Below, one piece after another: positions 9,327 to 43,401 of a stretch of 64,000 nucleotides of DNA (the first letter of the stretch is position 1; each line of letters starts with the position of its first letter). This DNA comes from a virus. Under the pieces are notes generated by a model that was given only the letters and a program-made list of their open reading frames with translations, was not told the DNA's origin and searched no databases. The stretch spans positions 1 to 64,000 of the IMG/VR virus record IMGVR_UViG_3300020048_000023. One strand, given 5' to 3'. Both the position numbers and the translations under genes were made by a program.

Positions 9327-9357
9327 TTTGTTTATTCAAATATTATGTCTACATTTG
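9327..9357 (+). promoter_or_regulatory. Bacteroidota sigma-70 promoter upstream of tRNA group 1
   Basis: TTTG-N19-TACATTTG; about 30 nt identical to the promoter at 38051-38082. Confidence 0.75.
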
Positions 9358-9384
9358 CAGCATAATTCAAAAAACAACATTGAT

Positions 9385-9585
9385 ATGGCAAAAACATTGG
9401 CTCAATTTGACAATAAAATCAGGGTTAAATTCTTGGTAAACGAACAAAAGTACTTTTTGTTTTATGGCAACAGCCATATCATACTTGACGGTAAATTCGC
9501 AACACAATTTGACACACAGCCGCAAGCCGAAAAAGTAGGTAAAAAATTAATTCACAAAGGCGGTATTTATTATTCGTCAAAATAA
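9385..9585 (+). CDS. Small hypothetical protein
   Basis: ATG after promoter. Confidence 0.45.
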   Translation: MAKTLAQFDNKIRVKFLVNEQKYFLFYGNSHIILDGKFATQFDTQPQAEKVGKKLIHKGGIYYSSK

Positions 9586-9636
9586 AATCAGAATAATCTG
9601 AACTTTTTACAACAACAGACTATATATTAAAAGAAA

Positions 9637-9732
9637 ATGAAAACAGTTACAAGCATATTACGACTACGCCAGCGCAGACAAAGGCTGCTTCAACGCTCAC
9701 AAGCGTCTGGACGAGGTACGACTATGATGTAA
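9637..9732 (+). CDS. Putative attenuator leader peptide 1 (Arg/Leu/Gln-rich) MKTVTSILRLRQRRQRLLQRSQASGRGTTMM
   Basis: Manual translation; followed by terminator and Arg/Leu/Gln tRNAs. Confidence 0.8.
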   Translation: MKTVTSILRLRQRRQRLLQRSQASGRGTTMM

Positions 9733-9766
9733 TGTTTCTTAAAAAATAGAATATTATTTTGTGGAT

Positions 9767-9805
9767 AAACCCCCTAAGGACGCCAAGCGACCGAGGGGGT
9801 TTTTT
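9767..9805 (+). terminator. Intrinsic terminator (attenuator 1)
   Basis: AAACCCCCT...AGGGGGTTT hairpin plus T-tract. Confidence 0.8.
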
Positions 9806-9829
9806 ATTTTACACGTTCTTTAACAATAT

Positions 9830-9903
9830 GGCTCTGTAGCACAACTGGATGGTGCAGTGGTTTCCTAAACCAAAGGTTGCAGGTTCAAATCCTGCCTGAG
9901 TCA
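9830..9903 (+). tRNA. tRNA-Arg(CCT)
   Basis: Cloverleaf; loop TTCCTAA. Confidence 0.85.
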
Positions 9904-9911
9904 CACAATAT

Positions 9912-9990
9912 GCCCTCATATCGGCGGCGCCTTCTAAGCGTTAGTACCGTAACGGATAGGAAGATGTGCGTTCGAATCGCACTGGGGGTA
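9912..9990 (+). tRNA. tRNA-Arg(TCT), rearranged D-arm
   Basis: Acceptor GCCCTCA/TGGGGGT; loop CTTCTAA; T-arm GTGCG-TTCGAAT-CGCAC; no canonical D arm. Confidence 0.65.
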
Positions 9991-9995
9991 CATAT

Positions 9996-10069
9996 GGCAC
10001 TGTAGCTCAATGGATTAGAGCGTAGGTCTACGGAACCTGAGGTTGTGAGTTCGACCCTCACCAGTGTCA
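9996..10069 (+). tRNA. tRNA-Arg(ACG)
   Basis: Cloverleaf; loop CTACGGA. Confidence 0.85.
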
Positions 10070-10076
10070 CTTAAAT

Positions 10077-10155
10077 GCGGGATTAGCCCCCCCAGTCTTC
10101 GGAACTGGCAAGGGTAACGGAGCTGAAAATGTAGGTTCGAATCCTATCTCCCGTA
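10077..10155 (+). tRNA. tRNA-Arg(TCG), rearranged D-arm
   Basis: CCAGT-CTTCGGA-ACTGG arm; T-arm TAGG-TTCGAAT-CCTA; no canonical D arm. Confidence 0.6.
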
Positions 10156-10179
10156 CAAGATATGCAGATGCATATAAAT

Positions 10180-10262
10180 GTCGATGTGGTGAAAGTGGTA
10201 AACACGCATCCTTGAGGTGGATGTGCTCGCAAGGCTTGCTGGTTCGAGTCCAGTCATCGATA
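10180..10262 (+). tRNA. tRNA-Leu(GAG)
   Basis: Loop TTGAGGT; long variable arm. Confidence 0.85.
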
Positions 10263-10267
10263 CAAAT

Positions 10268-10352
10268 GCGGATATGGCGAAACTGGTTAGACGCGCCATC
10301 TTCAGACGGTGGTGGGAGTAATCCCGTGCAGATTCGACTTCTGCTATCCGCA
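10268..10352 (+). tRNA. tRNA-Leu(CAG)
   Basis: Loop TTCAGAC; long variable arm. Confidence 0.85.
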
Positions 10353-10357
10353 CAAAT

Positions 10358-10438
10358 GCCCATATGGTGGAACGGTAGACACCTGCGTTTTAGGTGCGCA
10401 CGCTGAAAAGCATATCAGTTCGAGTCTGATTATGGGTA
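10358..10438 (+). tRNA. tRNA-Leu(TAG)
   Basis: Loop TTTAGGT; long variable arm. Confidence 0.85.
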
Positions 10439-10443
10439 CATAT

Positions 10444-10517
10444 TGTCGTATAGCTCAACTGAATAGAGCGTCGGATTTTGGCTCCGAAGGTTGCTGGTTT
10501 GAACCCAGCTACGACAA
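10444..10517 (+). tRNA. tRNA-Gln(TTG)
   Basis: TCGGA-TTTTGGC-TCCGA. Confidence 0.8.
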
Positions 10518-10522
10518 CAAAT

Positions 10523-10593
10523 ACTTCTCTCGTCTAACGGTAGGATAGCAGATTCTGGCTCTGTTGGTGTTGGTTCGATTCCAATGAGAAGCG
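10523..10593 (+). tRNA. tRNA-Gln(CTG)
   Basis: GCAGA-TTCTGGC-TCTGT. Confidence 0.8.
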
Positions 10594-10671
10594 CAAAAAA
10601 AAAATGTCTTATTGAATAAACTTTTGTGTTTTTGCTAATATTTATAGATATAAACGCAAATATCTATACTT

Positions 10672-11481
10672 ATGGACATAAATTACAAGAACATTTCTAC
10701 GGAAGAATTAACCAACGCGGTTATTAATTCAGACTCATTTACTGATGTATTAAAATTTATGAGTTTGAAAATAAATCCAACCACTCGACGCAATATTGAG
10801 CGTTTAGTTAAGAAAAGAGGTATATCTGTGCAGCATTTTAGCACAGTTCAACGTGTAGTTGATTATAAGAAAAGGTATGATAAAGATAAAATATTACAAG
10901 TTATACCAGAATGCCATACGTTTAAAGATATATTAATTCATTTGGACTTACTACCCATTACGTCTAATTATAACACACTTAAAAAATATTTAGACTTATG
11001 GGGCGTGGATTATACCAGATTAACTAAACGGCTCAAAGCTAAATACGATAAGGAAAACTTAATTAAAGCGATAAGCACGTCGGCTACTTACAACGAAGTA
11101 TTATCAAAATTAGATTTGCAAACGGGAAATTCTATGTATTATACAGTATTAAAACACTGCAAATCGTATGGTATAGATACTTCACATTTAAACTCGGTAA
11201 AACGTAATGAAGCTAAAAAATTAGCCGATATTTTAGTGACAGGCGCTTCTTATAGTCGCAAAGATTTAAAAAAACGCTTATACAAAGAGGGGTTAAAACA
11301 ACCTGTATGCGAATTATGCGGTCAGGATGAATGGTGGTATGGCAAAAAAATGAGTCTTATTCTTGATCATATAAACGGAATTAACAATGACAATAGGATC
11401 GAAAACCTGCGTATAGTTTGCCCTAATTGTGAAGGTACACTGGAAACTCATTGTCGTGGGTATAAGCATTTGGATAAATAA
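10672..11481 (+). CDS. HNH homing endonuclease
   Basis: CELC...LDHINGINNDNRIENLRIVCPNC. Confidence 0.85.
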   Translation: MDINYKNISTEELTNAVINSDSFTDVLKFMSLKINPTTRRNIERLVKKRGISVQHFSTVQRVVDYKKRYDKDKILQVIPECHTFKDILIHLDLLPITSNYNTLKKYLDLWGVDYTRLTKRLKAKYDKENLIKAISTSATYNEVLSKLDLQTGNSMYYTVLKHCKSYGIDTSHLNSVKRNEAKKLADILVTGASYSRKDLKKRLYKEGLKQPVCELCGQDEWWYGKKMSLILDHINGINNDNRIENLRIVCPNCEGTLETHCRGYKHLDK

Positions 11482-15726: not shown

Positions 15727-15849
15727 ATGGAAAACTTGATTTTAGACATAAGCAAAACGAGCCAATTTTATTGGGGCGTGCCAACAACCAATCCAACCAC
15801 AGACGGTGACGGATCAGGAAGGGGTATACTATGTCGAAAGCAAAGTTAA
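15727..15849 (+). CDS. Putative attenuator leader peptide 2 MENLILDISKTSQFYWGVPTTNPTTDGDGSGRGILCRKQS
   Basis: Manual translation; Y/W/G/P/T/D core; terminator follows. Confidence 0.75.
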   Translation: MENLILDISKTSQFYWGVPTTNPTTDGDGSGRGILCRKQS

Positions 15850-15936: not shown

Positions 15937-16713
15937 TTATGAGCCAATCTTAACTGACGCCCATTTTTTACCGTGTAGTATGTCCGATATTATGGACTCG
16001 GAAATAGCATATTTTTTAGCAATATCTTTTTGAAAAAAGTTACGAGTAGCTAAATCACGTTTTATTTCGGCTACGGTATCTGGTGTTAGTTTTTTAACGG
16101 CGTTTCCGCTGGCATAAGTATGCTGGGCGTTTGATCTACGGGTTAAGAATTCTAAATTAGAAGACCTATTATCGGTTTTAATACCGTTAATATGATTAAC
16201 TTCTAAAGTAGGCTCCCAAGACTCTTTTTTGAACGTGATAGCGACTAAACGATGAACTCGAAAGTTTTTACGTTTACGATCATCGCCAGTTAAAGCAAGA
16301 ACAAGGTATGATTGATTGAAATTTTGACGTATCACTTTACCTGTATCATTTTGTTTAACACGACCATAGTTGGAAACAGAATATTTGGAATACCCAGCGA
16401 TAGTCAACCACTCTTCGCCTTTTAATGATTCTCCGTTTAGATTTTTGTAAAAATTTCTGGCGTAGTTATTGTAATCGTTATCAATTTTAAGTTGGTGTGA
16501 TTGGTTAAAATCAACAACAATACGTTCATTAGGTATAAAACCATCTAAATTTCCGTTTTTAACGTCGTCATAATGATCAACGCTTTCAATGTATGGTGAG
16601 CCAAAATTATTACCAATGTAAATGAACTTATCATTCCACCATTGTGCGATTTTTGTTCTACGTGAGGCGCCTAAATAATAGTCGCCATTCACTAACTCTT
16701 GTTTTTTTATCAT
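15937..16713 (-). CDS. NUMOD4/HNH homing endonuclease
   Basis: EEW..I.GY.KYSVSNYGRV; VHRLVA; VNHINGIKTDNRSSNLE. Confidence 0.85.
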   Translation of the reverse strand: MIKKQELVNGDYYLGASRRTKIAQWWNDKFIYIGNNFGSPYIESVDHYDDVKNGNLDGFIPNERIVVDFNQSHQLKIDNDYNNYARNFYKNLNGESLKGEEWLTIAGYSKYSVSNYGRVKQNDTGKVIRQNFNQSYLVLALTGDDRKRKNFRVHRLVAITFKKESWEPTLEVNHINGIKTDNRSSNLEFLTRRSNAQHTYASGNAVKKLTPDTVAEIKRDLATRNFFQKDIAKKYAISESIISDILHGKKWASVKIGS

Positions 16714-17125
16714 AATTCTTTTTATATAAATATGTCGATAGAGAATAAAAGTACGTACATTGCGAATAAAATAAACAGTTCTTAAAAATATTGAAGATTG
16801 AACGTTCGAGAAACGAAGTTGGTAATCGTAGGAATGTAGGATTTATAGTGTCCATCATTTAGAGAGTAACTAACGGCGAGTCTACTGTGACAGGTTGTAT
16901 GATCATCTTTAGCTATCACGGCTAAGCGTGAGTACAGAAAATACAGAATGGCAGATCAGCGGTTTTTGGTGTAACAACACACCTACGCGGCGGAGTTTCG
17001 AGGATAACCCAGATAGAGGAAGGTGATTCAGCCAAAGGTAAACTTCAGAGCTTCGCGAGCTCTGGCATCAAAGTTCTGCGCGGAATGATGATGTTGCTTT
17101 TTCGAACAGGGCTCTGGGTTCTAAT

Positions 17126-17233
17126 GCGGTGATAGTATAATGGTAGTGCGCCTAACCAAATGCAATAGCCATCCGTTTGAAGGGTGGTGAGGCAAAGTAG
17201 TCGGGAAGTAGGGTTCGATTCCCAGATACCGCT
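17126..17233 (+). ncRNA. tRNA-Gly-like RNA with anticodon loop replaced by a long hairpin
   Basis: GCGGT...ACCGC ends, D-arm-like segment, GGGTTCGATTCCC T-arm; no 7-nt anticodon loop. Confidence 0.5.
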
Positions 17234-17242
17234 CAAATTAAT

Positions 17243-17316
17243 GCGAGGATAGCTCAGTTGGTAGAGTGCCCGCCAGTGGGGTGGGAAGGTCATTGGTTCG
17301 AATCCAATTCCCTGCA
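17243..17316 (+). tRNA. tRNA-like gene, possible His(GTG) with non-canonical loop
   Basis: Canonical D and T arms; CCCGC-CAGTGGG-GTGGG (A33). Confidence 0.5.
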
Positions 17317-17770
17317 CAGAATGTTGTTCTTTGAAAGTGTTTTACGCTGGATTGTAACAAATCTATGCTTAATTTGTTACAAGTTTTGTCGCAAATATAG
17401 CATATATTAGTGACAAGAAAATTAACCAAACTCACGCCAGTAATGGCTTGTAGGCGATTAATTCGCCAAAGGGGGTCGGCTAAATCCAGAGGAAATTAGA
17501 GCCATCATTGCTAATGGTCGGAGCCTTCGGGCGCTTGACGACCTTGATGAAACCCAAAACAGTTTAGACGGTTAGCAAGTCTACGACAACGAGGTAGGGG
17601 ATCAGACAGATGTAAGACGAGAAACAAAAGCCTAATTACGAAACATCGAACGACAAGTTCATTGACATATTGGAAGCCAAAAATAGTACCCAGCACCGTG
17701 AGGTAGCTGGATGATGTTTTATGTGCGGATGGTCAGGTTCATCCTGACTATCTTCACACGAAACATAAAT

Positions 17771-18628: not shown

Positions 18629-18702
18629 GGGCGTCTGGTCGCAGGTTCGAGTCCTGCCCCGCACCTTCGGGTGAGGGTAGCTCAGTTGGATAGAGCACGC
18701 CC
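18629..18702 (+). ncRNA. Circularly permuted tRNA-like RNA (YrlA-type topology)
   Basis: GGGCGT-[T arm]-[acceptor closed by TTCG]-[D arm]-ACGCCC. Confidence 0.7.
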
Positions 18703-20058: not shown

Positions 20059-20613
20059 ATGAGAACAAAAATAACGAAAGAACTGGAACAGCAAGTTAAA
20101 GATTTAAGATTGCAAAATTTTACTTATAGACAAATTGCTGGTAAAGTTGGGTGTAGTCTTGGTGTAATTGGTTCCATATTAGACGGTACGCATATTGCCT
20201 ATGGAACAAAAGAAAAAAAGCCACCAAAAAAATATGTATATGTGCATAATGCCACCCCAACAGTAAAAAGAATAATATCCTTACGTTTAGGTAATTTTAG
20301 AGGTAGGCAGAAAGACGGCAGTACTGGTCGTAAAAATAGTTATTTATCCACGCAGGCTGTTTTGGATAAAATAGGTAGTAATCCTATTTGTTATTTATCG
20401 GGGCGTAGTTTAGACTTGAATGATCGCAAATCATTTGCTTTAGACCACATAATTCCAGCTACTAAAGGCGGTGATAATTCTTTGGATAATTTAGATATTG
20501 TCCATTCTGACGTAAATAAAGCTAAAAATAATTTATTGAACGAAGAGTTTATTCGGTTATGCTTAGATGTTGTAACGCATAACGGATATGATTGTATTAA
20601 AAGAATAAAGTGA
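20059..20613 (+). CDS. HTH plus HNH endonuclease
   Basis: CYLSG...LDHIIPATKGGDNSLDNL...N..K. Confidence 0.8.
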   Translation: MRTKITKELEQQVKDLRLQNFTYRQIAGKVGCSLGVIGSILDGTHIAYGTKEKKPPKKYVYVHNATPTVKRIISLRLGNFRGRQKDGSTGRKNSYLSTQAVLDKIGSNPICYLSGRSLDLNDRKSFALDHIIPATKGGDNSLDNLDIVHSDVNKAKNNLLNEEFIRLCLDVVTHNGYDCIKRIK

Positions 20614-23689: not shown

Positions 23690-25129
23690 ATGTCAAAATT
23701 AAATCCGACCATCAAGCGAGAATCCAAATTCTCAACCCAGCGTTTAGCTGGTGGGTCTGGCGCTTTGGCTGCTAAGCAGGACGCCGAATCCTTGTTACGT
23801 AGGGCTGTTATGGCTTGCCTTTTATGGGAAGACCTGTTCTACAGCTCTGGTACCGATAACTCAGATAACATTGCAAAGTTGATCGCACAGGTTGACCCGC
23901 AGACTGTCGCTGAGATCGCTATTGAGGCTCGCGTTGCCCAGAAATTGAGGCACGTACCTTTGTACATCGCTTCCGAAATGCTCAAGCACCCTAAACATAG
24001 GGAATACGTAGGCGAAGTTCTTCCGCTGGTTATCACACGTGCCGACCAGATCACCGACTTCCTTTCTCTGTACTGGAAGGCTAACGGCAAGAGGAAAGCG
24101 ATTGCCGCACAGGTTAAAAAGGGCTTGGCTGATTCCTTCCATAACTTCAACGAGTACAAGCTCGCTAAGTATGACAGGGATTCCGAAATCAAGTTACGTG
24201 ACGTTATGCGTCTTGTACACCCTAAGCCGAGGAACGCCGCAGAAAGCGAACTGTTCGATAAGGTTATCAAGAGGACTCTGGAAACCCCAGATACTTGGGA
24301 AGTAGCTTTAAGCACAGGACGTGATAAGAAAGCAACTTGGGAACGTCTTATCGTTGAAGGTAAATTGGGTGCGCTTGCGTTCCTGAGGAACCTGAGCAAT
24401 ATGACCAAGGTTGGTGTTGATCACAACATAATCCGTCAGGGTTTTGAATCGATCTACTCAGCAATGTTGCTCCCGTTGAACTTCACCACGGCTGCCGCAC
24501 AGGTACCTGTATTCAAGGCTGATATCGAAAAGATGATGCTGAGGACTTACGCAGGATTACCTAAGCTTACAGGCTACACTATCTTCGTCGTAGACGTATC
24601 GGGTAGTATGAACTCTCGTACCAGCTCAAAGAGCACCGTGAACAGGATTGACGCAGCTTCAGCTATGGCTGTATTAGCAGCAAACCAGTGTGAAAACATT
24701 GATATCTATTGTACAGCAGGTAGTGACAGCTCACGTATCCATCAGACTGCAAAAATCGATTACCCGCAGAAGGGTTTCGGCTTGATCGACCAGATCGCTG
24801 AGTACAAACATATGGGTAAGAAAAGTTTAGGTGGTGGTGGTATCTTCACACGTCAGTGCTTGGAGTTCATCGCTACGCAAACTACAAAAGTGCCTGATAG
24901 GATTATCATCTTCTCAGACTCTCAGGACTGCGATTACCCGCACCTGAGGGTTCCGAAACCGTTCGGTAAGAACAACTACATCGTAGACGTATCGGCTGAA
25001 AAGCACGGCGTAAACTACAAGGGTGTATGGACGGCAGAAATCAGTGGTATGTCGGATCACTTCCTGACCTACATCGCTTCACTGGAAGGGTTGCAAAACA
25101 CTTTCGAAGACGACGATTCACTGCAATAA
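23690..25129 (+). CDS. rsr: Ro60/TROVE RNA-binding protein with vWA domain
   Basis: CLLWEDLFY, LRHVPL, YKLAKY, LRDVMRLVHPKP, PDTWEVALS, LRNL; DVSGSM MIDAS motif. Confidence 0.9.
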   Translation: MSKLNPTIKRESKFSTQRLAGGSGALAAKQDAESLLRRAVMACLLWEDLFYSSGTDNSDNIAKLIAQVDPQTVAEIAIEARVAQKLRHVPLYIASEMLKHPKHREYVGEVLPLVITRADQITDFLSLYWKANGKRKAIAAQVKKGLADSFHNFNEYKLAKYDRDSEIKLRDVMRLVHPKPRNAAESELFDKVIKRTLETPDTWEVALSTGRDKKATWERLIVEGKLGALAFLRNLSNMTKVGVDHNIIRQGFESIYSAMLLPLNFTTAAAQVPVFKADIEKMMLRTYAGLPKLTGYTIFVVDVSGSMNSRTSSKSTVNRIDAASAMAVLAANQCENIDIYCTAGSDSSRIHQTAKIDYPQKGFGLIDQIAEYKHMGKKSLGGGGIFTRQCLEFIATQTTKVPDRIIIFSDSQDCDYPHLRVPKPFGKNNYIVDVSAEKHGVNYKGVWTAEISGMSDHFLTYIASLEGLQNTFEDDDSLQ

Positions 25130-29585: not shown

Positions 29586-30248
29586 ATGGAACTACAGAGT
29601 AAAATCATTAACGATGATTACACCAGTTGGGTGTACGACGCCTACGACATTCAGAATAAAGAATCGGTCGTAACGCACGTAGCCGATTTTACCATACCTA
29701 CTGACCAGTGGAACGTAGGGCTCATTTACGGCAACTCTGGAAGCGGAAAATCTACCCTGCTCAGGAGTTACGACGGCGATATGAATATATCATTTGATAG
29801 CGACAAAGCACTCATTTCTAATTTCACACACCTGCAACCGCAGGAAGCCTGTAAGGTACTGGCAAGCGTAGGGCTGGCATCTGTACCCAGCTGGCTAAAA
29901 CCTTTTGACGTTCTATCCAACGGCGAGAAATTCAGGGCTGAGATCGCAATGCGTATCAGTCAGGCTGATGGTGTTTGCTTCATTGACGAGTTTACCAGTG
30001 TTGTAGACCGTGACGTGGCAAAGGCTATGTCGGTGGCTGTGGCTAAGTGGGTTCGCAGGGAGAATAAACAGGTTGTGCTTGCCAGCTGTCATAAAGACAT
30101 TATAGAATGGTTGCAGCCAGATTGGATTTACTCCACGGAAACGTGCGAGTATCAAAAAAAAAAGTCTGCGACAGACCAACCCTCGATTTACAAGTCTTTC
30201 GTGCAAAGTATGAAGCGTGGGACTTATTTAAACACCATCACTATCTAA
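29586..30248 (+). CDS. ABC-type ATPase (N-terminal part of likely ATPase-GNAT fusion)
   Basis: GNSGSGKS; LSNGEKFR; IDEFTSVVDR; SCH. Confidence 0.85.
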   Translation: MELQSKIINDDYTSWVYDAYDIQNKESVVTHVADFTIPTDQWNVGLIYGNSGSGKSTLLRSYDGDMNISFDSDKALISNFTHLQPQEACKVLASVGLASVPSWLKPFDVLSNGEKFRAEIAMRISQADGVCFIDEFTSVVDRDVAKAMSVAVAKWVRRENKQVVLASCHKDIIEWLQPDWIYSTETCEYQKKKSATDQPSIYKSFVQSMKRGTYLNTITI

Positions 30249-30676
30249 CCGAAAACCTGAATAACAGCGCCAGATTATACGTGGCAACGTTACACGATAA
30301 CCCGATAGCCTGTGTTGCTGTATTAGCCCAGCCGAATGGTTATCTAAAAAACGCATTCAGGGGCTCAAGGACGGTAGTAATGCCAGATTATCAGGGAATG
30401 GGTATAGGTTCATTGTTTAGTAACTTCATTGCGGGCAGTTATGTGCTGGCTGGCAACAGATACTTCACTAAGACCGTAAATCCTGCCCTTGGAGAGTACC
30501 GAAACAACCACCCTGACCTATGGAAGCCTACCAGCAAAAACGGCGTCCTACGCAAGGATATGAAGGGCAGACAGAAAGAACGTATGAAGTGGGATGAACA
30601 GCCGAGGGCTTCCTATTGCCACGAATTTATCGGCAAGAATATAGGGGATATAAACCTACTAAGCGAAAAAATTTAA
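30155..30676 (+). CDS. GNAT/Mom-like acetyltransferase (-1 frame continuation of the ATPase)
   Basis: WDLFKHHHYL; RTVVMPDYQGMGIG acetyl-CoA motif. Confidence 0.75.
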   Translation, partial: KKKVCDRPTLDLQVFRAKYEAWDLFKHHHYLTENLNNSARLYVATLHDNPIACVAVLAQPNGYLKNAFRGSRTVVMPDYQGMGIGSLFSNFIAGSYVLAGNRYFTKTVNPALGEYRNNHPDLWKPTSKNGVLRKDMKGRQKERMKWDEQPRASYCHEFIGKNIGDINLLSEKI

Positions 30677-30682
30677 AATAAA

Positions 30683-30714
30683 TTTGGTGGATTCAAAAAC
30701 TTGTTGTACATTTG
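30683..30714 (+). promoter_or_regulatory. Promoter of cas operon
   Basis: TTTG-N20-TACATTTG; a second promoter at 34178-34209 precedes cas8. Confidence 0.7.
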
Positions 30715-30733
30715 CGGCATAAATTAAAGCCGT

Positions 30734-31420
30734 ATGAGAGTTATACTACATTTAAGTAAAAACAAAGTACCAATTTCAAACCCACGGAGCCACGCACTAA
30801 GCCGTTTACATAAATGGTTTGGGCGAAATAATGAAATACATAACGAGCAATCATTCTATACTTTTTCCGACATTTGGGGTAAAGATAGTACGTCTAAAGA
30901 TGGCGTATTAGACTTTCCAAATGGCGGAAAATTTGTTTTCAGCTCGAATGATACTGGATTAATAAGTAAAATTCTTTTTGCTATTGATCAGGACTCCGAA
31001 TTTATATTTGGTATGAAGGTAATAGGTAGGGATTACGTTGTATTTGACCCATCTGCTGATTTTGGTGACTACTTTTTGTTTCAATCACCAATACACCTTA
31101 CGCAAAAATCCGCTGAAATCGGTTCAAAAAATAAATCTATAACATTCAAAGATACAAATAGCTCGGATGTTATGACCCATATTATGAAGCTGAAAATGGA
31201 TAAAGCTGGTGTCAATTCAGAAGGTTTTAGCATAGCATTCGATACCAAATCTCCAAGCAAAAGAACTCACGTGTGGAAACATAGTGATAATAAAAAACTG
31301 GTATTAAATTATTGCCCCGTAATCATCAACGGCACTAACGAGCAGAAAATATTCTGTCTTGACGTTGGCGTAGGTAAATCAACAGGTACTGGATTAGGTT
31401 GTATTAAACCCACAAAATAA
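30734..31420 (+). CDS. cas6: CRISPR endoribonuclease Cas6
   Basis: C-terminal GVGKSTGTGLG glycine loop; context. Confidence 0.85.
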   Translation: MRVILHLSKNKVPISNPRSHALSRLHKWFGRNNEIHNEQSFYTFSDIWGKDSTSKDGVLDFPNGGKFVFSSNDTGLISKILFAIDQDSEFIFGMKVIGRDYVVFDPSADFGDYFLFQSPIHLTQKSAEIGSKNKSITFKDTNSSDVMTHIMKLKMDKAGVNSEGFSIAFDTKSPSKRTHVWKHSDNKKLVLNYCPVIINGTNEQKIFCLDVGVGKSTGTGLGCIKPTK

Positions 31421-31426
31421 ATTACT

Positions 31427-31981
31427 ATGTATACGATAAAATATTCTGGCGTTTTTGCGTTTATGGCGCCGTACAGTACTGGCAGGAACACCTATATTAA
31501 AAGCAGGTCTTTCGTTATTCCGTCAACACTCAAAGGTATAGAACGATTTCTATTCCCAGAGCTTTTGAGGGATAAGTCCGTAAAACTGCAAAAAATATCA
31601 CGTTGTAAGTTACAATATGAGAGCATACACAATACTCAGGAAGAAGTAACAAGGTGCTCAGTTAAAAAAAACAAGAACAAAGATATAATACAGGAAAAAT
31701 CGGTCATTACCCGAGGCTTGCTTTATAATGTGTCCTGTTTTATTGCTTTTAAAAACGAGGAAGATGCCAAAAGAGCTTATGCTGAAACAATAAGATTATC
31801 CCGCAAAGAGGATATGTTATTGCCAAAGGAGTTTAATGAATGCAGCGACGAAGAGTTTTCAAATCTGAAAGGTATTGAGTTTGTTGAAACCAACGAAGCA
31901 GACTCACAAGCTATACTGGTAGGAAACAATAGGTACGATGATTACAGTAAAACGTATGGAAGAGTTGTTATCACACGTTAG
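31427..31981 (+). CDS. cas5: Cas5
   Basis: YSGVFAF.P...S..F..PSTL.GI N-terminal motif; context. Confidence 0.7.
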   Translation: MYTIKYSGVFAFMAPYSTGRNTYIKSRSFVIPSTLKGIERFLFPELLRDKSVKLQKISRCKLQYESIHNTQEEVTRCSVKKNKNKDIIQEKSVITRGLLYNVSCFIAFKNEEDAKRAYAETIRLSRKEDMLLPKEFNECSDEEFSNLKGIEFVETNEADSQAILVGNNRYDDYSKTYGRVVITR

Positions 31982-34163
31982 AGCTAAAGGTAGTCCTACT
32001 AATACGTCAGTCTTTCAACATTTGAAAGATACTGCGTATATTATGAACATACTATCACGCCACTTTAAGTTTAATAAGTGGGTGAGTAAAAATGGCGCAT
32101 TATTGCACGACATAGGCAAATGCCACCCAGTATTTCAATCAAGGCTCAGTACACCGTATGACGGCTCCGACCTCTGGATAATACCGTTTAGACACGAAAT
32201 ATCATCCATACTTTTTATCTCGTTATTTAAGCCAAAATACTGGGATATACTTATTGAACTTATTATTGGGCACCATAAATCTGTTTATCTACGGGGCGGA
32301 AATGAAATAGGTAGTAACCATAAGGGGCTACTAACTTTAATAGCCAATAACCCAGACGTATTTGAACGCCACGCTGGAACGGAAGAGGAATGGAATGAGT
32401 GGTCAAAAACAGCTTTATCTATACTTGGCTATCTTAAAATTAAAACTAAGCCTATTAGCTACAGCGAAGCCAGAGCCAACTATGATTACGTTGTATCGTA
32501 TTGTAGAGAAATAAGGAAAACAGGTAAGGGTATATCTAAATGGCGCGGAATACTCAATGCCGCCGACCATATATCATCGCACCTTGATCTATTTAGGGAT
32601 TCATTTGAATCAACTAAAAAAAGTATGTTTGTAAAGCCAGACGTTAGTGTTTATGACAAAATGGCTAATTCCTTATATCCTCTTTCGGTTATAGATATGA
32701 AAAAGGAGAAAAAGCATAAGCATACACTTATTATAGCACCTACTGGGGCTGGTAAAACCCAAGCTCTTCTAAGGTGCGCAACTGGTAGAATATTTTATAT
32801 TCTTCCGTTCCAAGCGGCAATTGACGCTATGTTTAGGCGTTTTAAACACGATCTAACAACAACAAACCCAAACTTGGCTATTTCTATACTTCACTCAAAA
32901 TCGGTACCTATTATAGAAAGAGAGGGTACCGTAGCGGAAGCAGTACTGCGGGATAAAATTGGATGCGGACTGAAAGTAGCAACACCATACCAAATATCAA
33001 AAATACTTGTTGGGTCGTCTGGATTTGAGCAGACCATACTTGATATAAGCGGGCAGGATATAATAATGGATGAAATACACTCCTATAATAGAGAGGCTAA
33101 ATCTTTTATATTAACGCTTATTCGTGTTTTACTGCTATTTAATTGTCGTATACACTTCGGAACCGCCACACTTCCAACGGATTTAAAAAATAAGATCATT
33201 AAAATACTTGGCGGAAAAGATAACGTTGATATAATTGAATTAACGAGCGAGCAGCAAGACACATTTGATAGACATATAATTTATAAAAGAGATAGTTTTA
33301 CTGACTGTCTTCCAACTATAGACGAAGCAGTGGCTAATAAGAAAAAAATCTTGATAGTAGCTAATACTGTAGGCGTTGCCCAAAGAATATATAATGATAT
33401 ACTACAAAGGTATCCACATTATAAGTCGTCGCTACTTCACAGCCGATTCAGACGTAAAGATAGGTCTGTTAAAGAAAACGAATTGTTTGATAATAATGCT
33501 TGGAAGGACGGTGGTATTCTCGTAGCAACACAAGTGGTTGAGGTTAGCCTTGACATTAATTACGATGTATTATTTACCTATTGTGCTCCATTTGACGCAC
33601 TCATACAAAGAGGTGGTCGTATTAATAGAGATAGAAATAGACCCCCAGACCGTATTTGCCCCATATACGTAATAAAGACACGAATGAATCATACTAATCG
33701 GGGTGAAGTTATTAGAACCGAGCTTGGCGGTTATAACGAAGGTATAGTAAATGCCACGTGGAATATTTTAAAAGATGGCGAAATACTAAAAGAATCAAGC
33801 ATACAGGGGATGATTGATGCAATATACCCTAATACAGTGGATGATCAAAACCTTATCACAAACTGTATATTTGACGCAGATGGTAACTGTATTATGCAGA
33901 AGCTAACTAATCAAAAAAACGACATACTCGAACAGATATTCACCCAGTCCAATGATATCTTGATTTTGGAAAGCGACGTGGAAGAATATAGGAGAAATTA
34001 TAAATCCAGAGCCGAACTTGAAATACCAGTGTTCTATCTGTCAAGGCATATAGAGAATGTGCTTATACATAATGAGTTAGGTGAGCTAAAGAAAATGGAC
34101 TGCGGGCTCGAACCGTACATTTTACCCAATGCAAACTACAGCTTTGAACGCGGAATTATTTAA
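31956..34163 (+). CDS. cas3: Cas3 HD nuclease-helicase
   Basis: HL..T, LHDIGK, RHE, HH, AD; APTGAGKT, DEIH, TAT, ATQVVEVSLDI, QRGGRINR. Confidence 0.95.
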   Translation: MEELLSHVRAKGSPTNTSVFQHLKDTAYIMNILSRHFKFNKWVSKNGALLHDIGKCHPVFQSRLSTPYDGSDLWIIPFRHEISSILFISLFKPKYWDILIELIIGHHKSVYLRGGNEIGSNHKGLLTLIANNPDVFERHAGTEEEWNEWSKTALSILGYLKIKTKPISYSEARANYDYVVSYCREIRKTGKGISKWRGILNAADHISSHLDLFRDSFESTKKSMFVKPDVSVYDKMANSLYPLSVIDMKKEKKHKHTLIIAPTGAGKTQALLRCATGRIFYILPFQAAIDAMFRRFKHDLTTTNPNLAISILHSKSVPIIEREGTVAEAVLRDKIGCGLKVATPYQISKILVGSSGFEQTILDISGQDIIMDEIHSYNREAKSFILTLIRVLLLFNCRIHFGTATLPTDLKNKIIKILGGKDNVDIIELTSEQQDTFDRHIIYKRDSFTDCLPTIDEAVANKKKILIVANTVGVAQRIYNDILQRYPHYKSSLLHSRFRRKDRSVKENELFDNNAWKDGGILVATQVVEVSLDINYDVLFTYCAPFDALIQRGGRINRDRNRPPDRICPIYVIKTRMNHTNRGEVIRTELGGYNEGIVNATWNILKDGEILKESSIQGMIDAIYPNTVDDQNLITNCIFDADGNCIMQKLTNQKNDILEQIFTQSNDILILESDVEEYRRNYKSRAELEIPVFYLSRHIENVLIHNELGELKKMDCGLEPYILPNANYSFERGII

Positions 34164-34228
34164 CATCTAAAAATAAATTTGGTAGATTCAAAAATTAGTT
34201 ATATATTTGCCACGTTAATCCAAAACAT

Positions 34229-35566
34229 ATGGAAGCCATAAATTTAGGTAGAATACTTTTACGTCAATACAATAAGGTTAATTCAACGAATTACTCAGCA
34301 AAGGAGTTTTTTGAGAATCATTTTGAAGTGTTCCATAGCCCAAAGTCTGAAAAGAATTTTATAAGCATAACAAATAGCCCATTTCATAATAATGGTGGCA
34401 AAAAACCAAAACCATACGAAAAACGTATGGCTGAATATCTGGAAAAAATAGCGTCTGGTAATAGAACTACTTCAATAGGTCGTGATTTTCCAGCGGAAGG
34501 GGAATCACAAGCGACCAGATCACAGGTTGATATGAGAAACATAGACGCATTAACTACGGAAGATATCTATTTGGCTCAGATTGGTGATAATCTATTTGTT
34601 AACATAGAATCATATTCGGTCGGAATAGGGCACCCAGAAGTGTTGTATGAAATCTACCAAGGGTGGTTGGTATACCGAGATAAAATATTGGATAATACGT
34701 TTTACAATTACAAAGGCAACCAGTGTGATACGTGGAACGGTATATGGTTATTGGCTAATACCGAAGACCAATCAGTTGATATGACCGTAAATGATATAGT
34801 AAACAGCTATACGGCAAAGAAAAAAGATAAAAGCGGCAACGAAAAACCTATTGTTGATGAACATAAGTGTTTAAGGTTTGAATCAGTTCGCTGGCACCAA
34901 TTTTTTATTAACCTCGCGGTAAAGTATGCAGATGAATCATTTAACATTAATGTCAAATTATTTAGTGATACAAATAAAGCGTATGGTGATATTACCGTCG
35001 ACCTTAAAGACCTGCGTTACGTGTACGACTTCCTGAAATTGCATACCGAAATAACTGGTAGTAAAAGAGCGTATATTCAAAAGATATTTGAGTCTTGGGA
35101 TATAAAAAGCTTTCGGTATATACTTGAAGGAGATACCTTGGAAAAACATTGCTTTGAACCAAATAATTTTTATGATATCATTCATAATCTCAAACAAGAT
35201 AAAAAAGTTAAACAGAAAGATATAATTAATCTTAAAAACTACTACTTTATGATACTGAGTACCCCAGAAATAATAGCTACAACCGATAGACTATCAACGC
35301 AGTTAATTAATTTCGCCAAAAGTAAGGCTGGTATGAGAAATAGAATAACTGACGTTGAAAAGTTGGTTAATTCTTGGTCAGTGGCTCACTTTAGTAAGAA
35401 CTTAGCTGAAATGGCTAAAACTTATGAAGATGATTTTACAATCGATATATTGGATAATAACACTATTATACAGCTCAATAAGGACTGCTTCAATGTGTTT
35501 ATATCCCAGCTTAAACTTAAATTCTATTTATCCACCTCTAAATCAAACAAAAATGTTAAATTCTAA
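34229..35566 (+). CDS. cas8: Cas8-like large subunit (type I-B-like)
   Basis: Position between cas3 and cas7; size; GR..L..YN...Y.AK.FF N-terminus. Confidence 0.55.
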   Translation: MEAINLGRILLRQYNKVNSTNYSAKEFFENHFEVFHSPKSEKNFISITNSPFHNNGGKKPKPYEKRMAEYLEKIASGNRTTSIGRDFPAEGESQATRSQVDMRNIDALTTEDIYLAQIGDNLFVNIESYSVGIGHPEVLYEIYQGWLVYRDKILDNTFYNYKGNQCDTWNGIWLLANTEDQSVDMTVNDIVNSYTAKKKDKSGNEKPIVDEHKCLRFESVRWHQFFINLAVKYADESFNINVKLFSDTNKAYGDITVDLKDLRYVYDFLKLHTEITGSKRAYIQKIFESWDIKSFRYILEGDTLEKHCFEPNNFYDIIHNLKQDKKVKQKDIINLKNYYFMILSTPEIIATTDRLSTQLINFAKSKAGMRNRITDVEKLVNSWSVAHFSKNLAEMAKTYEDDFTIDILDNNTIIQLNKDCFNVFISQLKLKFYLSTSKSNKNVKF

Positions 35567-36692
35567 AAGATTAAGAATCAAACAGGTTATTTATTACAAT
35601 AACCCAACCCTATTTTGCGTGGGTAAAGAAGGGCAAAAACGAGTATATGATAAAACATATGGAAAATACCTTGCGTATTCGTCTGGGCAGCAACAAAAAA
35701 CTACCCGCGTAAACGAGGTGTGTGAATTGCTTGGTATACCACTTGCGGATTTTGTGTTTTACTACAATGAAAAGCACAAGCAAGCGTCAAAAGGTATTTC
35801 ACAAGACCCGAGGCACGTAGAGGCTATGACACGTGGGTATATGAATGTAACCACTAATAATATTAAACGGGAAAGTCCACTTAATATTAGTACTATGTTT
35901 CCAATACACCCATTATTGGTTGAATCCATCGATGATTTAATTGCCGTAGGTCACGGGGTAAGGGAAAAAAGTTTTACCCTTATACAGGAAAAGAAAAAGA
36001 CCAAAAAAGCTGGCGAGGATGATGATGAATCAGAAAAATCAGACGGCTCAAAGACAGAAGGTAAGTACGAAGAGGTTCCAAAAACAACCGATGAATACAA
36101 AAAATTTCTCGACGAAATGGCTGATACTCGAAAAAAAGGTATAGAACATAGTTTAGCTGGTGGTAAATTATTAACCCGTGGGGTGTTCGAAAGATATATT
36201 GAAATTGACCTAACCAGATTGTTCGCATTTAACAATGATATCTTACTTCCGAGCAAAGAGATTGCCGCTGAATATATGGACGCGATCATTAAGGACGGGT
36301 GGAAAGAAGTAGACACCAAATTGTATGGTAAAATGTTTATCGTACCAAAGTCAATACGCGATAAATATATCCCTGCAATTGCCGAAGCTCTGGTTATGGC
36401 TCTTCCAAACACTAATCAGTCCAGTTCATACTCAGTAGGCGAAATAGTTGCTACGGCGGTTAGTTATGACGCCTCGGAAAATTCATATGCAATTGTGTGC
36501 GAAGAAAATAATGAAACCGCTAATGTTATATTAGACAAGGATGCTGGTTCCAAATTATTCATCACGCCTATTGCCAAAAGTAGCAGGATATTCGCAGGGT
36601 ACGACCGTGAATCAGCTACCTCAAAGGCTAATAAAGAAGCCATTGCGTATATAACTCAGGAATTGCTAAACTTCGACTACGAGGGTATATAA
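35553..36692 (+). CDS. cas7: Cas7 backbone subunit
   Basis: YSSGQQ.K; RGYM; KRESPL.IS; IDL.RLF; context. Confidence 0.7.
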   Translation: MLNSKRLRIKQVIYYNNPTLFCVGKEGQKRVYDKTYGKYLAYSSGQQQKTTRVNEVCELLGIPLADFVFYYNEKHKQASKGISQDPRHVEAMTRGYMNVTTNNIKRESPLNISTMFPIHPLLVESIDDLIAVGHGVREKSFTLIQEKKKTKKAGEDDDESEKSDGSKTEGKYEEVPKTTDEYKKFLDEMADTRKKGIEHSLAGGKLLTRGVFERYIEIDLTRLFAFNNDILLPSKEIAAEYMDAIIKDGWKEVDTKLYGKMFIVPKSIRDKYIPAIAEALVMALPNTNQSSSYSVGEIVATAVSYDASENSYAIVCEENNETANVILDKDAGSKLFITPIAKSSRIFAGYDRESATSKANKEAIAYITQELLNFDYEGI

Positions 36693-36767
36693 ACGTGAAA
36701 TAAGCCATTTTGTTCTTTGACAAATCTGGTGTAGTAAATTAATGTTTAAGGGGTTACACATAGGTAC

Positions 36768-38025
36768 ACTGTGCGTAACCCCATTCTGTAAGGAAATAAC
36801 AACATAATCGGTACATTTCTCTTAAACAATTGTACTGTGCGTAACCCCATTCTGTAAGGAAATAACAACTAACCATCGGGTTCTCCTTACCGTTCCCAAC
36901 TGTGCGTAACCCCATTCTGTAAGGAAATAGTAATACATATGCGGTTGAGTTTGCATTAGTTTTTATTGCGCATAAACCCATTCTGTAAGGAAATAATAAT
37001 CACTGACCAATTACCAGATCAGTCCAGTTAGAGTAACCCCATTCTGTAAGGAAATAACAACGAGTGATTTAAGGTGCCCGCCTCGAATACGACTGTGTGT
37101 AACCTCATTCTGTAAGGAAATAATAATTATGATAATTGAGCAGAGCCAGAGTCTTATACTGTGTGTAATCCCGTTCTGTAAGGAAATAATAAGTAGTAAA
37201 ATAAATGGCGCAATACCTTAAAAACTGCGCGTAACCCCATTCTGTAAGGAAATAATAATACACAAACGAAGGAGTAACCCATAACGTCAACTGTGTGTAA
37301 CCCTATTCTGTAAGGAAATAACAACATCGAAAAGATCAGGCAAATAGAAGCTTCAATTGTGCATAACCCAATTCTGTAAGGAAATAAAAACTTTTCGAAA
37401 GGGTTAAAGGTGTTGAACTATATGTAACCCTATTCTGTAAGGAAATAACAACTACCGACACCCTCGAACAAAGCTATTACCTACTGTGTGTAACCCTATT
37501 CTGTAAGGAAATAACAACTAATCGAAGTTGAACACATAAGCTCTAAAAACTGTGCATAACCCTATTCTGTAAGGAAATAACAACGACGGAATAATAAACC
37601 TCTGGTTGGAAAAACTGTGTGTAGCCCCATTCTGTAAGGAAATAATAATACATCGCAGGTAATCGCATTGCCAACTGTACGTAACCCTATTCTGTAAGGA
37701 AATAAAAATAGTTGTATTTGCACAGCGCCACAACCAGCAATGTGTGTAGCCCCATTCTGTAAGGAAATAACAATCAGAAACTCATTATGCTATGCTTAGC
37801 TAATATAACCTCATTCTGTAAGGAAATAAAAATAAGGAGCAATTCAAGAAGGTTGACTTAGATACGGTGCGTAACCACATTCTGTAAGGAAATAATAATA
37901 TGTACACCAGTGCAGTATCATCAGTGCACTGCGCATAACCCCATTCTGTAAGGAAATAATAATAATCAACACTTTAACCGAAAGATAAAACCATACATAA
38001 CCCTATTCTGTAAGGAAATTAAAAA
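36768..38025. CRISPR. CRISPR array: 20 degenerate 36-nt repeats (consensus ACTGTGYGTAACCCYATTCTGTAAGGAAATAAYAAY), 19 spacers mostly 29-30 nt
   Basis: Repeats at 36768, 36834, 36899, 36965 ... 37990; core TTCTGTAAGGAAAT invariant. Confidence 0.95.
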
Positions 38026-38123: not shown

Positions 38124-38249
38124 ATGAAAAAGATCACCTACATAACCAGTTCCAATAACCTTATTCTGAAAGGAAATAACAATAGTTGTTTGGAAGCATC
38201 GTCAGAGGCGTTAGCCACTACGAATGGAATCGGTATGTACGTGAGGTAA
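38124..38249 (+). CDS. Putative attenuator leader peptide 3 MKKITYITSSNNLILKGNNNSCLEASSEALATTNGIGMYVR
   Basis: Manual translation; S/C/L/E/A core; terminator follows. Confidence 0.8.
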   Translation: MKKITYITSSNNLILKGNNNSCLEASSEALATTNGIGMYVR

Positions 38250-39593: not shown

Positions 39594-39679
39594 GGAAGCG
39601 TGGGAGAGTGGTTTAATCCACCAACTTGGAAAGTTGGCAGCCTCGCAAGGGCTCGTAGATTCGAATTCTACCGTTTCCG
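39594..39679 (+). tRNA. tRNA-Ser(GGA)
   Basis: CCAAC-TTGGAAA-GTTGG. Confidence 0.85.
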
Positions 39680-40363
39680 CTAATAGTTCTTTGACATTTT
39701 TATGTTAATAATATTAATAATAATTTGTAGGTATTTGTTGGCTCTATCTGGTTTAAAGTATTTCAAACCAGAAGCATCAACAATACACATTTCAATACCG
39801 CGTTCGATACACGCTTGAAATTTACGTGTATCGTTATTTTGAATTTGAGATAGTTTATCGGTTCCGTAAATGGGCTCATAATGAAATATACCATTCAATT
39901 CAAAAGCCAGTTTAAGTGACGGTATGTAAATATCCAATTCGGAGTTGATTGCGTCTTTTTTGTTGTAGTGTATTTCTAATAACGGAAATTGAATGGGTAA
40001 TTCCTGTTCCAGATAAATTTCGAGTTTTGAACGCCTGTTACCAGTTGTTTTATGCGTATTGTTATACGTAGCCGCGCAGGATTTAGTGCAGAAATCGTTT
40101 CCTTTAGTTGATTTTTGCTGCGAAAGTAGTTTACTAAAATTTTTACCGCAATTAGCACACGTGGTTTGTTTTCTGGTTCTTTCGTATACACCCCAGCATT
40201 TCATTGAGCAAAAATCACCAATATCTAATTTATTAGGATTAAAAACGTCTTGTATTCTCTTTTTAGTTAAATAAAAAGTTTTTTCACATTGTTTACATTG
40301 GCACGGAAGCTTATCATATGATTTTGCCGTACTAAATTCTAATTCGTTAAATAGCGCTTTCAT
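39680..40363 (-). CDS. Zn-finger plus PD-(D/E)XK/Vsr-like endonuclease (homing-type)
   Basis: CxxC/FCS repeats; ELDIYIP...AFELNG.FHY. Confidence 0.7.
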   Translation of the reverse strand: MKALFNELEFSTAKSYDKLPCQCKQCEKTFYLTKKRIQDVFNPNKLDIGDFCSMKCWGVYERTRKQTTCANCGKNFSKLLSQQKSTKGNDFCTKSCAATYNNTHKTTGNRRSKLEIYLEQELPIQFPLLEIHYNKKDAINSELDIYIPSLKLAFELNGIFHYEPIYGTDKLSQIQNNDTRKFQACIERGIEMCIVDASGLKYFKPDRANKYLQIIINIINIKMSKNY

Positions 40364-43283: not shown

Positions 43284-43401
43284 CTCAGGCGGGTAACGCC
43301 CGCTTTCAATGTTCTGTAACTTCGGGATAAAGAATCAATTATTAGGGCTGCGTAACTTCGGGATAAGTAAGCCCTTTTTATTTATACTAATATTTATTAA
43401 T

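Follow-up and report, generated by a model that had tools for sequence, protein, structure and literature searches.

A cassette made of a short leader open reading frame (ORF), an intrinsic terminator and an array of nine transfer RNA (tRNA) genes, found in the virus record IMGVR_UViG_3300020048_000023, probably works as a ribosome-mediated transcription attenuator, in which the translation of a leader peptide would control a phage tRNA operon. The DNA analyzed, denoted here as the window, comprises the first 64 kb of this single 160,910-bp record, and two further cassettes of the same build are found in the genome (cassettes 2 and 3, the one starting at 9637 being cassette 1). An earlier note, made from the letters of the DNA, had claimed that the leader contains a cognate codon for each of the nine downstream tRNAs, and that a ribosome stalled on it would allow antitermination. 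The observation was confirmed, and its interpretation as an attenuator is supported by sequence comparison and by the modeling of RNA folding.

The leader ORF and its match to the downstream tRNA genes

The leader ORF (Table 1) is preceded by an in-frame stop codon 9 nucleotides (nt) 5′ of its ATG, and no homologues were found for it in the databases. It is nearly identical in contig L316, which carries the orthologue of cassette 1 in a close metagenomic relative of the phage, codon 6 being the single change. After a TTA codon (9658), the leader presents an uninterrupted run of 12 Arg, Leu (CTN) and Gln codons, namely CGA, CTA, CGC, CAG, CGC, AGA, CAA, AGG, CTG, CTT, CAA and CGC. The anticodons of the downstream tRNAs read all 12, and every one of the nine anticodons finds its own best-match codon in the run.

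The specificity of this match was evaluated by scanning the whole genome in six frames with 12-codon windows, under standard wobble rules. Among about 322,000 windows, the leader run was the sole one scoring 12/12, the next independent window reaching 9/12. At the amino-acid level, about four of the 193,188 stop-free 10-residue windows scored 10/10, which is consistent with the overlapping windows of the leader itself. When the peptide was kept fixed and its codons were drawn according to the codon usage of the phage, one-to-one coverage of the nine tRNAs by synonymous choice was obtained with a P of about 0.005 (0.03–0.07 if wobble was allowed). Finally, a three-by-three table of the leaders of the three cassettes against their arrays gave diagonal counts of 14, 17 and 9, with off-diagonal counts of 3 to 9.

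The array itself required closer attention. ARAGORN and Rfam call seven tRNAs in 9830–10594 (Arg-CCT, Arg-ACG, Leu-GAG, Leu-CAG, Leu-TAG, Gln-TTG and Gln-CTG), while the genes assigned to Arg-UCU (9911–9993) and Arg-UCG (10076–10170) are missed by default ARAGORN and by Rfam. Both slots are tRNA-sized and lie at most 10 nt from their neighbors. Each of the two genes can form an acceptor stem, an outer stem and an inner 5-bp stem, with compensatory differences in every one of them, and a 7-nt anticodon loop with UCU or UCG, respectively, at its center. They share an extended two-part anticodon arm, followed by a conserved 15-nt linker that has GG before the T arm, and lack a D arm. Canonical tRNA-Arg(tct) and tRNA-Arg(tcg) genes with a similar acceptor stem occupy these positions in L316. 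Because of this common rearranged architecture, the compensatory stem changes and the canonical counterparts in L316, the UCU and UCG assignments were accepted from sequence, and the array is taken to contain nine tRNAs, two of them non-canonical. The nine downstream tRNAs of the earlier note are thus recovered, seven by standard detection and two by architecture and position. As a separate observation, tRNA-Gln(TTG) (10444–10518) shows 91% identity over 57 nt to the tRNA-Arg(TCG) of L316 (strand −, about 189–245), a likeness that may reflect the recruitment of a tRNA through a one-base change in the anticodon.

Table 1. Features of cassette 1 and location of cassettes 2 and 3
Feature	Position	Strand	Details
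Bacteroidota-type promoter	9327–9357	+	TTTG 9327–9330; −7 box TACATTTG 9350–9357
239-nt insertion between promoter and leader	9363–9601	+	contains a 66-codon ORF (9385–9585); absent in L316
ACTATATATTA motif	9619–9629	+	8 nt 5′ of the leader ATG
Leader ORF, 31 codons	9637–9732	+	ATG 9637, TAA 9730–9732
Regulatory run (segment 1 of the RNA switch)	9661–9696	+	12 consecutive Arg, Leu (CTN) and Gln codons
Segment 2, antiterminator 5′ strand	9701–9720	+	core GCGTCT 9703–9708
A/U-rich hairpin over the stop codon	9722–9764	+	closed by the 2:3 helix in the antiterminator state
Intrinsic terminator	9768–9810	+	segment 3 9768–9783, loop, segment 4 9787–9801, T tract 9800–9810
boxA-like element GTTCTTTAACAAT	9815–9827	+	
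Nine-tRNA array, gaps of 10 nt or less	9830–10594	+	Arg-CCT, Arg-TCT (non-canonical), Arg-ACG, Arg-TCG (non-canonical), Leu-GAG, Leu-CAG, Leu-TAG, Gln-TTG, Gln-CTG
Cassette 2	15727–15849		promoter, ACTATATATAA motif, leader, terminator, boxA-like element
Cassette 3	38124–38249		promoter, ACTATATATAA motif, leader, terminator, boxA-like element

Signals surrounding the leader

The promoter of cassette 1 contains a 32-nt stretch identical to the cassette 3 promoter and shows 95.6% identity in L316. In that contig the promoter leads straight into the 5′ region of the leader, and the 239 nt separating the two in the phage were therefore regarded as an insertion; the 66-codon ORF within it had no Pfam match. 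The ACTATATATTA motif is probably an A/U-rich translation-initiation region. It occurs four times on the plus strand of the genome and not at all on the minus strand, three of the copies being placed 8–13 nt before a leader ATG. Instead of a Shine-Dalgarno sequence, the mRNAs of Bacteroidota make use of upstream A residues (PMC7366714).

Beyond the leader, the terminator hairpin (9768–9801) has a predicted energy of −19 to −20 kcal/mol; a T6-A-T4 tract comes next, and the stem is identical in L316. The terminator lies 24 nt upstream of the first tRNA (9830), and no TAnnTTTG box is present between the two. The interval holds the boxA-like element GTTCTTTAACAAT, which matches 12 of the 13 bases of the E. 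coli rrnB boxA core GCTCTTTAACAAT, as carried on a primer (PMC2176067), and which stands, as in rrn operons, at the start of an untranslated operon. Similar elements are also located 3′ of the terminator in cassettes 2 and 3 and in relatives L157, L165, L179, L206, L207 and L357. Further boxA-like elements of the form GTTCTTTRA were noticed on the plus strand at 17326, 39686, 15243 and 36712. The first two follow tRNA genes (His, 17243–17317, and Ser, 39594–39680) by 6–9 nt, as if Nus factors were reloaded within arrays.

A predicted four-segment RNA switch in cassette 1

The pairing proposed in the earlier note, GCGTCT (9703–9708) with GGACGC (9778–9783) and AGG (9714–9716) with CCT (9773–9775), is present, with a calculated energy of −8.0 kcal/mol alone and −22.0 kcal/mol in the local fold. 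It engages the 5′ arm of the terminator and would compete with the terminator fold. What the note had missed is an anti-antiterminator: in both the minimum-free-energy fold and the centroid of the full leader, segment 2 (9701–9720) pairs back onto the regulatory codons of segment 1 and the terminator forms. This 1:2 pairing completes a trp-like 1:2, 2:3 and 3:4 design. The leader ORF, the run of cognate codons, the terminator with no later promoter and the anti-antiterminator of an attenuator are all found here.

The effect of a ribosome was modeled by folding the transcript up to 9786, when the 3′ arm of the terminator has not yet been made, with a 30-nt ribosome footprint masked. With no ribosome, 1:2 pairing prevails (P = 0.93) and the antiterminator (2:3) is rare (P = 0.03). 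Similar values are obtained with the ribosome at the stop codon (0.89 and 0.02, respectively), and 2:3 pairing falls to 0 while segment 2 lies under the ribosome. With the A site placed on positions 9649–9688, where every one of the nine tRNAs has at least one cognate codon, the probability of pairing between segment 2 and the terminator 5′ arm rises to 0.6–0.99, while that of 1:2 drops to 0–0.1 at most positions and to 0.3 at 9661. The stalled-ribosome logic advanced in the note was thus reproduced by the masked fold, which predicts 2:3 pairing only with the ribosome on the regulatory codons. The note had also named a non-competitive antiterminator as a finding that would tell against it, and on this point the outcome is divided: the antiterminator cannot compete once the full-length RNA is at equilibrium (P = 0, compared with 0.83 for the terminator), whereas in the co-transcriptional fold it dominates. 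The 2:3 duplex of cassette 1 (−13.4 kcal/mol) is better than dinucleotide shuffles (P = 0.029), and the direct-path barrier from the antiterminator to the terminator state was estimated at 11.3 kcal/mol.

Two further cassettes in the same genome

The best-scoring window for the Tyr, Trp, Gly, Pro, Thr and Asp (and His) set is leader 2 alone, with 14/17 codons, while in leader 3 eight of nine consecutive codons are cognate to Ala, Glu, Leu-TAA, Leu-CAA, Ser and Cys tRNAs. The Leu codons are split between cassettes, with CTN in cassette 1, which encodes the GAG, CAG and TAG tRNAs, and TTR in cassette 3, which encodes the TAA and CAA tRNAs. The 2:3 duplexes of cassettes 2 and 3 also surpass dinucleotide shuffles (P = 0.046 and 0.011, respectively) and span nearly the entire 5′ arm of the terminator, with barriers from antiterminator to terminator of 8.3 and 13.6 kcal/mol. 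The antiterminator of cassette 1 is the weakest of the three, and the mutual exclusivity of antiterminator and terminator is clearer in cassettes 2 and 3, as well as in the distant contigs L157, L158 and L165 described below, than in cassette 1.

Leader 2 is parted from its tRNAs by a minus-strand HNH gene (15937–16713), which is missing in contig L307 of the close relative. For other tRNAs in the window, such as His (17243) and Thr (25226), no separate matching ORF lies upstream. A fourth ACTATATATAA copy lies outside the window, at 160003, 54 nt after a promoter-like box and with neither a leader ORF nor tRNAs behind it. In addition, a tRNA-like gene at 17118–17235 (counterpart L307:1597–1682) has an acceptor stem and a T arm, and carries an insert of about 35 nt that is absent from the relative; the Ser(tga) label given to it by ARAGORN in intron mode is unreliable.

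Conservation in a close relative and in distant phages

A scan of metagenomes for the promoter pattern recovered four contigs from one sample (L316, L307, L347 and L357), with 74–97% identity to the phage; the same pattern gave no matches in IMG/VR. From the leader to the first tRNA, L316 agrees with the phage at 229 of 234 aligned bases with one 1-nt gap (97%), all regulatory codons and segments 2–4 being identical, while its flanking gene shows 80.6% identity. L307 and L347 contain the orthologues of cassettes 2 and 3, in which the structure-forming flanks are identical and the regulatory cores have been rewritten, one of them with a 27-nt indel. Nothing but Ser, Cys, Leu, Ala and Glu occurs in the L347 core, while the 8-bp 2:3 complement has been retained. 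This contig also joins a homologue of 29586–30685 directly to the cassette 3 promoter, the 7.3-kb block 30686–38016 being absent. L357 (519–1700, +) provides a fourth cassette, with a Lys/His/Asn/Phe/Val/Ile/Met leader core, a terminator, a boxA-like element and an array formed by a tRNA-like gene with a long insert followed by Phe, Ile, His, His and Met tRNAs. Transfer RNAs for Lys, Asn, Met, Ile, Val and Phe are missing from the phage, and these are precisely the amino acids, besides His, of the L357 leader.

In eleven cassettes of more distant phage contigs, too, the composition of the leader tracks the set of downstream tRNAs. Among the contigs retrieved by means of the TROVE protein (L157, L158, L165 and L179), three leader classes were distinguished: one with Leu, Cys, Ser and Tyr; another with Asn, Gln, Gly, Thr, His, Ala, Phe, Pro and Arg; and a third with Trp, Met, Lys, Arg, Val, Ile and Gly, with or without Thr, Asp and Glu. 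Every class precedes a terminator, a boxA-like element and a matching array, and six of nine leaders are individually significant (corrected P ≤ 0.005). The variable residues are informative: Asp and Glu are confined to the L165 leader, whose array has Asp and Glu tRNAs, and Thr occurs in the L158 and L179 leaders, whose arrays include Thr, and not in that of L157, whose array lacks it, although the L165 leader contains Thr residues despite an array with no Thr tRNA. In L157, L158 and L165, an antiterminator hairpin overlaps terminators that differ in sequence. Furthermore, amino acids are partitioned differently, since Gln goes with Asn and Gly in the distant phages and with Arg and Leu here, and leaders still follow their arrays, which argues that shared ancestry alone is not the explanation.

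Of the 119 loci picked up by a search for a T tract plus boxA, only four had tRNAs downstream; useful among them were L206 and L207, which have the same layout but matches that are not significant individually. Scanning IMG/VR for the promoter plus ACTATATATWA yielded 96 loci, none related to the phage by blastn. The search with the R2K ATP-grasp protein gave six loci, all without tRNAs, and that for loci related through the 503-residue protein (43309–44820) found none. A leader-like ORF before Arg tRNAs in L267 has two Arg codons only and was not counted. The crAss-like contigs L103, L109, L114 and L163 were discarded as leader matches because arrays that cover most amino acids make them uninformative. 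With regard to these crAss001-like contigs (strand −; also L299:1500–1700), it was observed that a promoter and an ORF of roughly 12 codons precede a terminator located 7–15 nt before tRNA-Gln, the first gene of arrays of about 20 tRNAs.

Proposed mechanism and points that weigh against it

The observations could be integrated in the following model. The host RNA polymerase would initiate near the 9350 promoter and a ribosome would translate the 31-codon leader. If aminoacyl-tRNAs for the Arg, CTN-Leu and Gln codons were ample, the ribosome would clear the run and segment 2 would either be covered or re-pair with segment 1, so that the 3:4 terminator would form and transcription would end at 9800–9810. 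If any one of the nine decoders were scarce, which is the physiological trigger we infer, the ribosome would stall in 9661–9688 and hold segment 1, and segment 2 would pair with the 5′ arm of the terminator before its 3′ arm exists. Transcription would then read through past the boxA-like element into all nine tRNAs, and this element might recruit Nus factors and shield the untranslated array from Rho. The cassette would behave as an OR-gate, raising tRNA supply on demand and shutting itself off once the supply is restored.

Several points speak against this model or limit its reach. The terminator beats the antiterminator at equilibrium in every ribosome state, and the switch must therefore be kinetic. 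The firm 6-bp helix of cassette 1 ties up the upper stem of the terminator alone; the lower C5/G5 stem (−12.7 kcal/mol) could still form, in a pseudoknot-compatible manner, unless three further weak pairs are added, and since it could co-exist with the helix, read-through in this cassette may be partial. The two non-canonical tRNAs among the nine may lack decoding function. The model also presumes that transcription and translation are coupled in the host. The 97% identity to L316 could result from recent recombination rather than from selection. Lastly, the array of Bacteroides phage crAss001 has no leader or terminator, its promoter being directly before tRNA-Gln, and the device is not universal.

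Alternative explanations

A more specific role, which is tentative and in our view doubtful, would make the cassettes alarm-triggered switches for tRNA replacement within a counter-defense island. The leader would report whether the host decoders of its codon set are intact and, if an anticodon nuclease or shut-off by the host removed one of them, the stalled ribosome would switch on the phage copies. The rearranged tRNA-Arg genes might escape cleavage, and the neighbors resembling Ro60 and Y RNA might belong to the same program.

Among the explanations that dispense with ribosome-mediated attenuation, the least improbable, still one to which we attach little weight, retains the coupling between translation and transcription with another polarity or mechanism. 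Leader translation would block the loading of Rho or load Nus factors at boxA; slow decoding would lower tRNA output, or else the hairpin plus boxA would be an rrn-like boxB/boxA antitermination site. The boxA-like element that follows the hairpin, with 12/13 bases of the rrnB core, would fit this scheme, and so would the facts that the equilibrium fold is always the terminator and that the antiterminator of cassette 1 is weak. However, the T6-A-T4 tract marks the hairpin as a terminator, and the stop codon lies 38 nt before it, so that the ribosome cannot cover it. The 1:2 and 2:3 alternatives, which recur in three cassettes and in relatives, would be a design left unexplained, and no benefit is evident in making fewer tRNAs when decoding is slow.

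It is very unlikely that the codon run is sensed as RNA, without translation, by pairing with tRNA anticodons in the manner of a T-box with many specifiers. The run does offer one codon per downstream tRNA, but these codons share one frame from the ATG to the stop; the leader cores of the relative have been rewritten with the amino-acid composition and the frame kept, and not the sequence; a conserved element for the tRNA 3′ end is absent; and neither a T-box nor any other Rfam family was matched, even in a permissive scan.

Coincidence is harder still to credit. The ORF would be spurious or an ordinary small gene, as its shortness and lack of database homologues might suggest, and the hairpin would terminate the upstream 66-codon gene, which it does follow in the phage. 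Yet L316 has no such upstream ORF and keeps both leader and terminator, and the run is the unique best of about 322,000 windows, with a match that recurs in two further cassettes, in four of the close relative and in more of the distant ones. Equally hard to credit is that the Arg-rich core, adjoined by a hairpin and a boxA-like element, encodes an N-like arginine-rich-motif antiterminator that binds these RNA elements as lambda N does at nut sites, since the peptides of cassettes 2 and 3 share the architecture without being basic, the four Arg tRNAs account for the richness in Arg, and a hairpin followed by boxA is not the nut order.

Genome setting and host

The window has 39% G+C and contains about 30 tRNA genes, with HNH homing-endonuclease genes and a TROVE/Ro60 gene interspersed. 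Promoters are of the form TTTG / TAnnTTTG, the Bacteroidota consensus (PMC7366714), and the nearest matches of the TROVE protein are found in crAss001-type phages of Bacteroides intestinalis (57–58% identity); because of both facts, a Bacteroidota host is likely. The DNA of 9200–11500 matches GenBank phages only in pieces of tRNA size. Of the HNH homing-endonuclease genes, three lie within or beside the tRNA arrays (10672–11481, +; 15937–16713, −; 20059–20613, +). A YrlA (Y RNA-like) match at 18629–18702, below the Rfam threshold (39.7 bits compared with a gathering score of 69), sits 5 kb from the TROVE/Ro60 gene (23690–25129).

Relation to known systems and biological meaning

The closest counterparts are the enterobacterial attenuators, such as trpL, hisL, the multivalent thrL (Thr/Ile) and ilvL (Ile/Leu/Val), and ilvBN, with which the cassette shares a short leader ORF with regulatory codons, the 1:2/2:3/3:4 segments (as predicted here), an intrinsic terminator before the regulated genes and the presence of several amino acids in one leader. 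In the trp attenuator, too, the 3:4 hairpin is more stable than 2:3 and the switch is kinetic. The differences lie in what is regulated and sensed. Those attenuators control biosynthetic enzymes, whereas here the regulated genes are tRNAs and the signal would be the supply of the very molecules being made; sensing would resolve isoacceptors and codons, with nine anticodons for three amino acids; and the element is carried by a phage of a probable host group that does without Shine-Dalgarno sequences, with a boxA-like element behind it. In the E. coli pheST attenuator (pheM leader), charged-tRNA supply acts through a leader peptide on part of the translation machinery, but the part in question is a synthetase and one amino acid is sensed; we know of no attenuator of this type for tRNA genes.

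T-box riboswitches likewise read tRNA status through a terminator/antiterminator switch upstream of translation-related genes. They bind uncharged tRNA directly, by a specifier codon and the T-box bulge and without a ribosome, while the present element has an ORF and gave no T-box match in Rfam at the gathering score or at E-values up to 5. The antitermination of rrn operons at boxA (NusB/NusE, NusA, NusG and SuhB) resembles the cassette in that a boxA-like sequence opens a long untranslated RNA operon, and differs in that the sequence is placed here after a regulated intrinsic terminator, any role of Nus factors being putative. A full-text search of the literature brought up no description of tRNA genes under the control of a leader peptide. 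The cassette is judged to be a real and conserved form of leader-peptide attenuation, a known mechanism, in which tRNA genes would be the regulated genes.

The usual view of phage tRNA genes takes them as constitutively expressed supplements to codon usage or as decoys against tRNA-cleaving defenses. If the proposed mechanism is true, the phage would gauge decoding speed codon by codon and supply tRNAs on demand, in blocks sorted by amino acid. Textbook leader-peptide attenuation would be extended to a new class of regulated genes, whose product feeds back directly on the sensor. The sequence signature would predict which tRNAs form one regulatory unit and would back the anticodon assignment of non-canonical tRNAs, and such cassettes may be of use in synthetic biology as compact, programmable, codon-specific sensors. 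The question of why phages carry tRNAs would thereby become a testable one.

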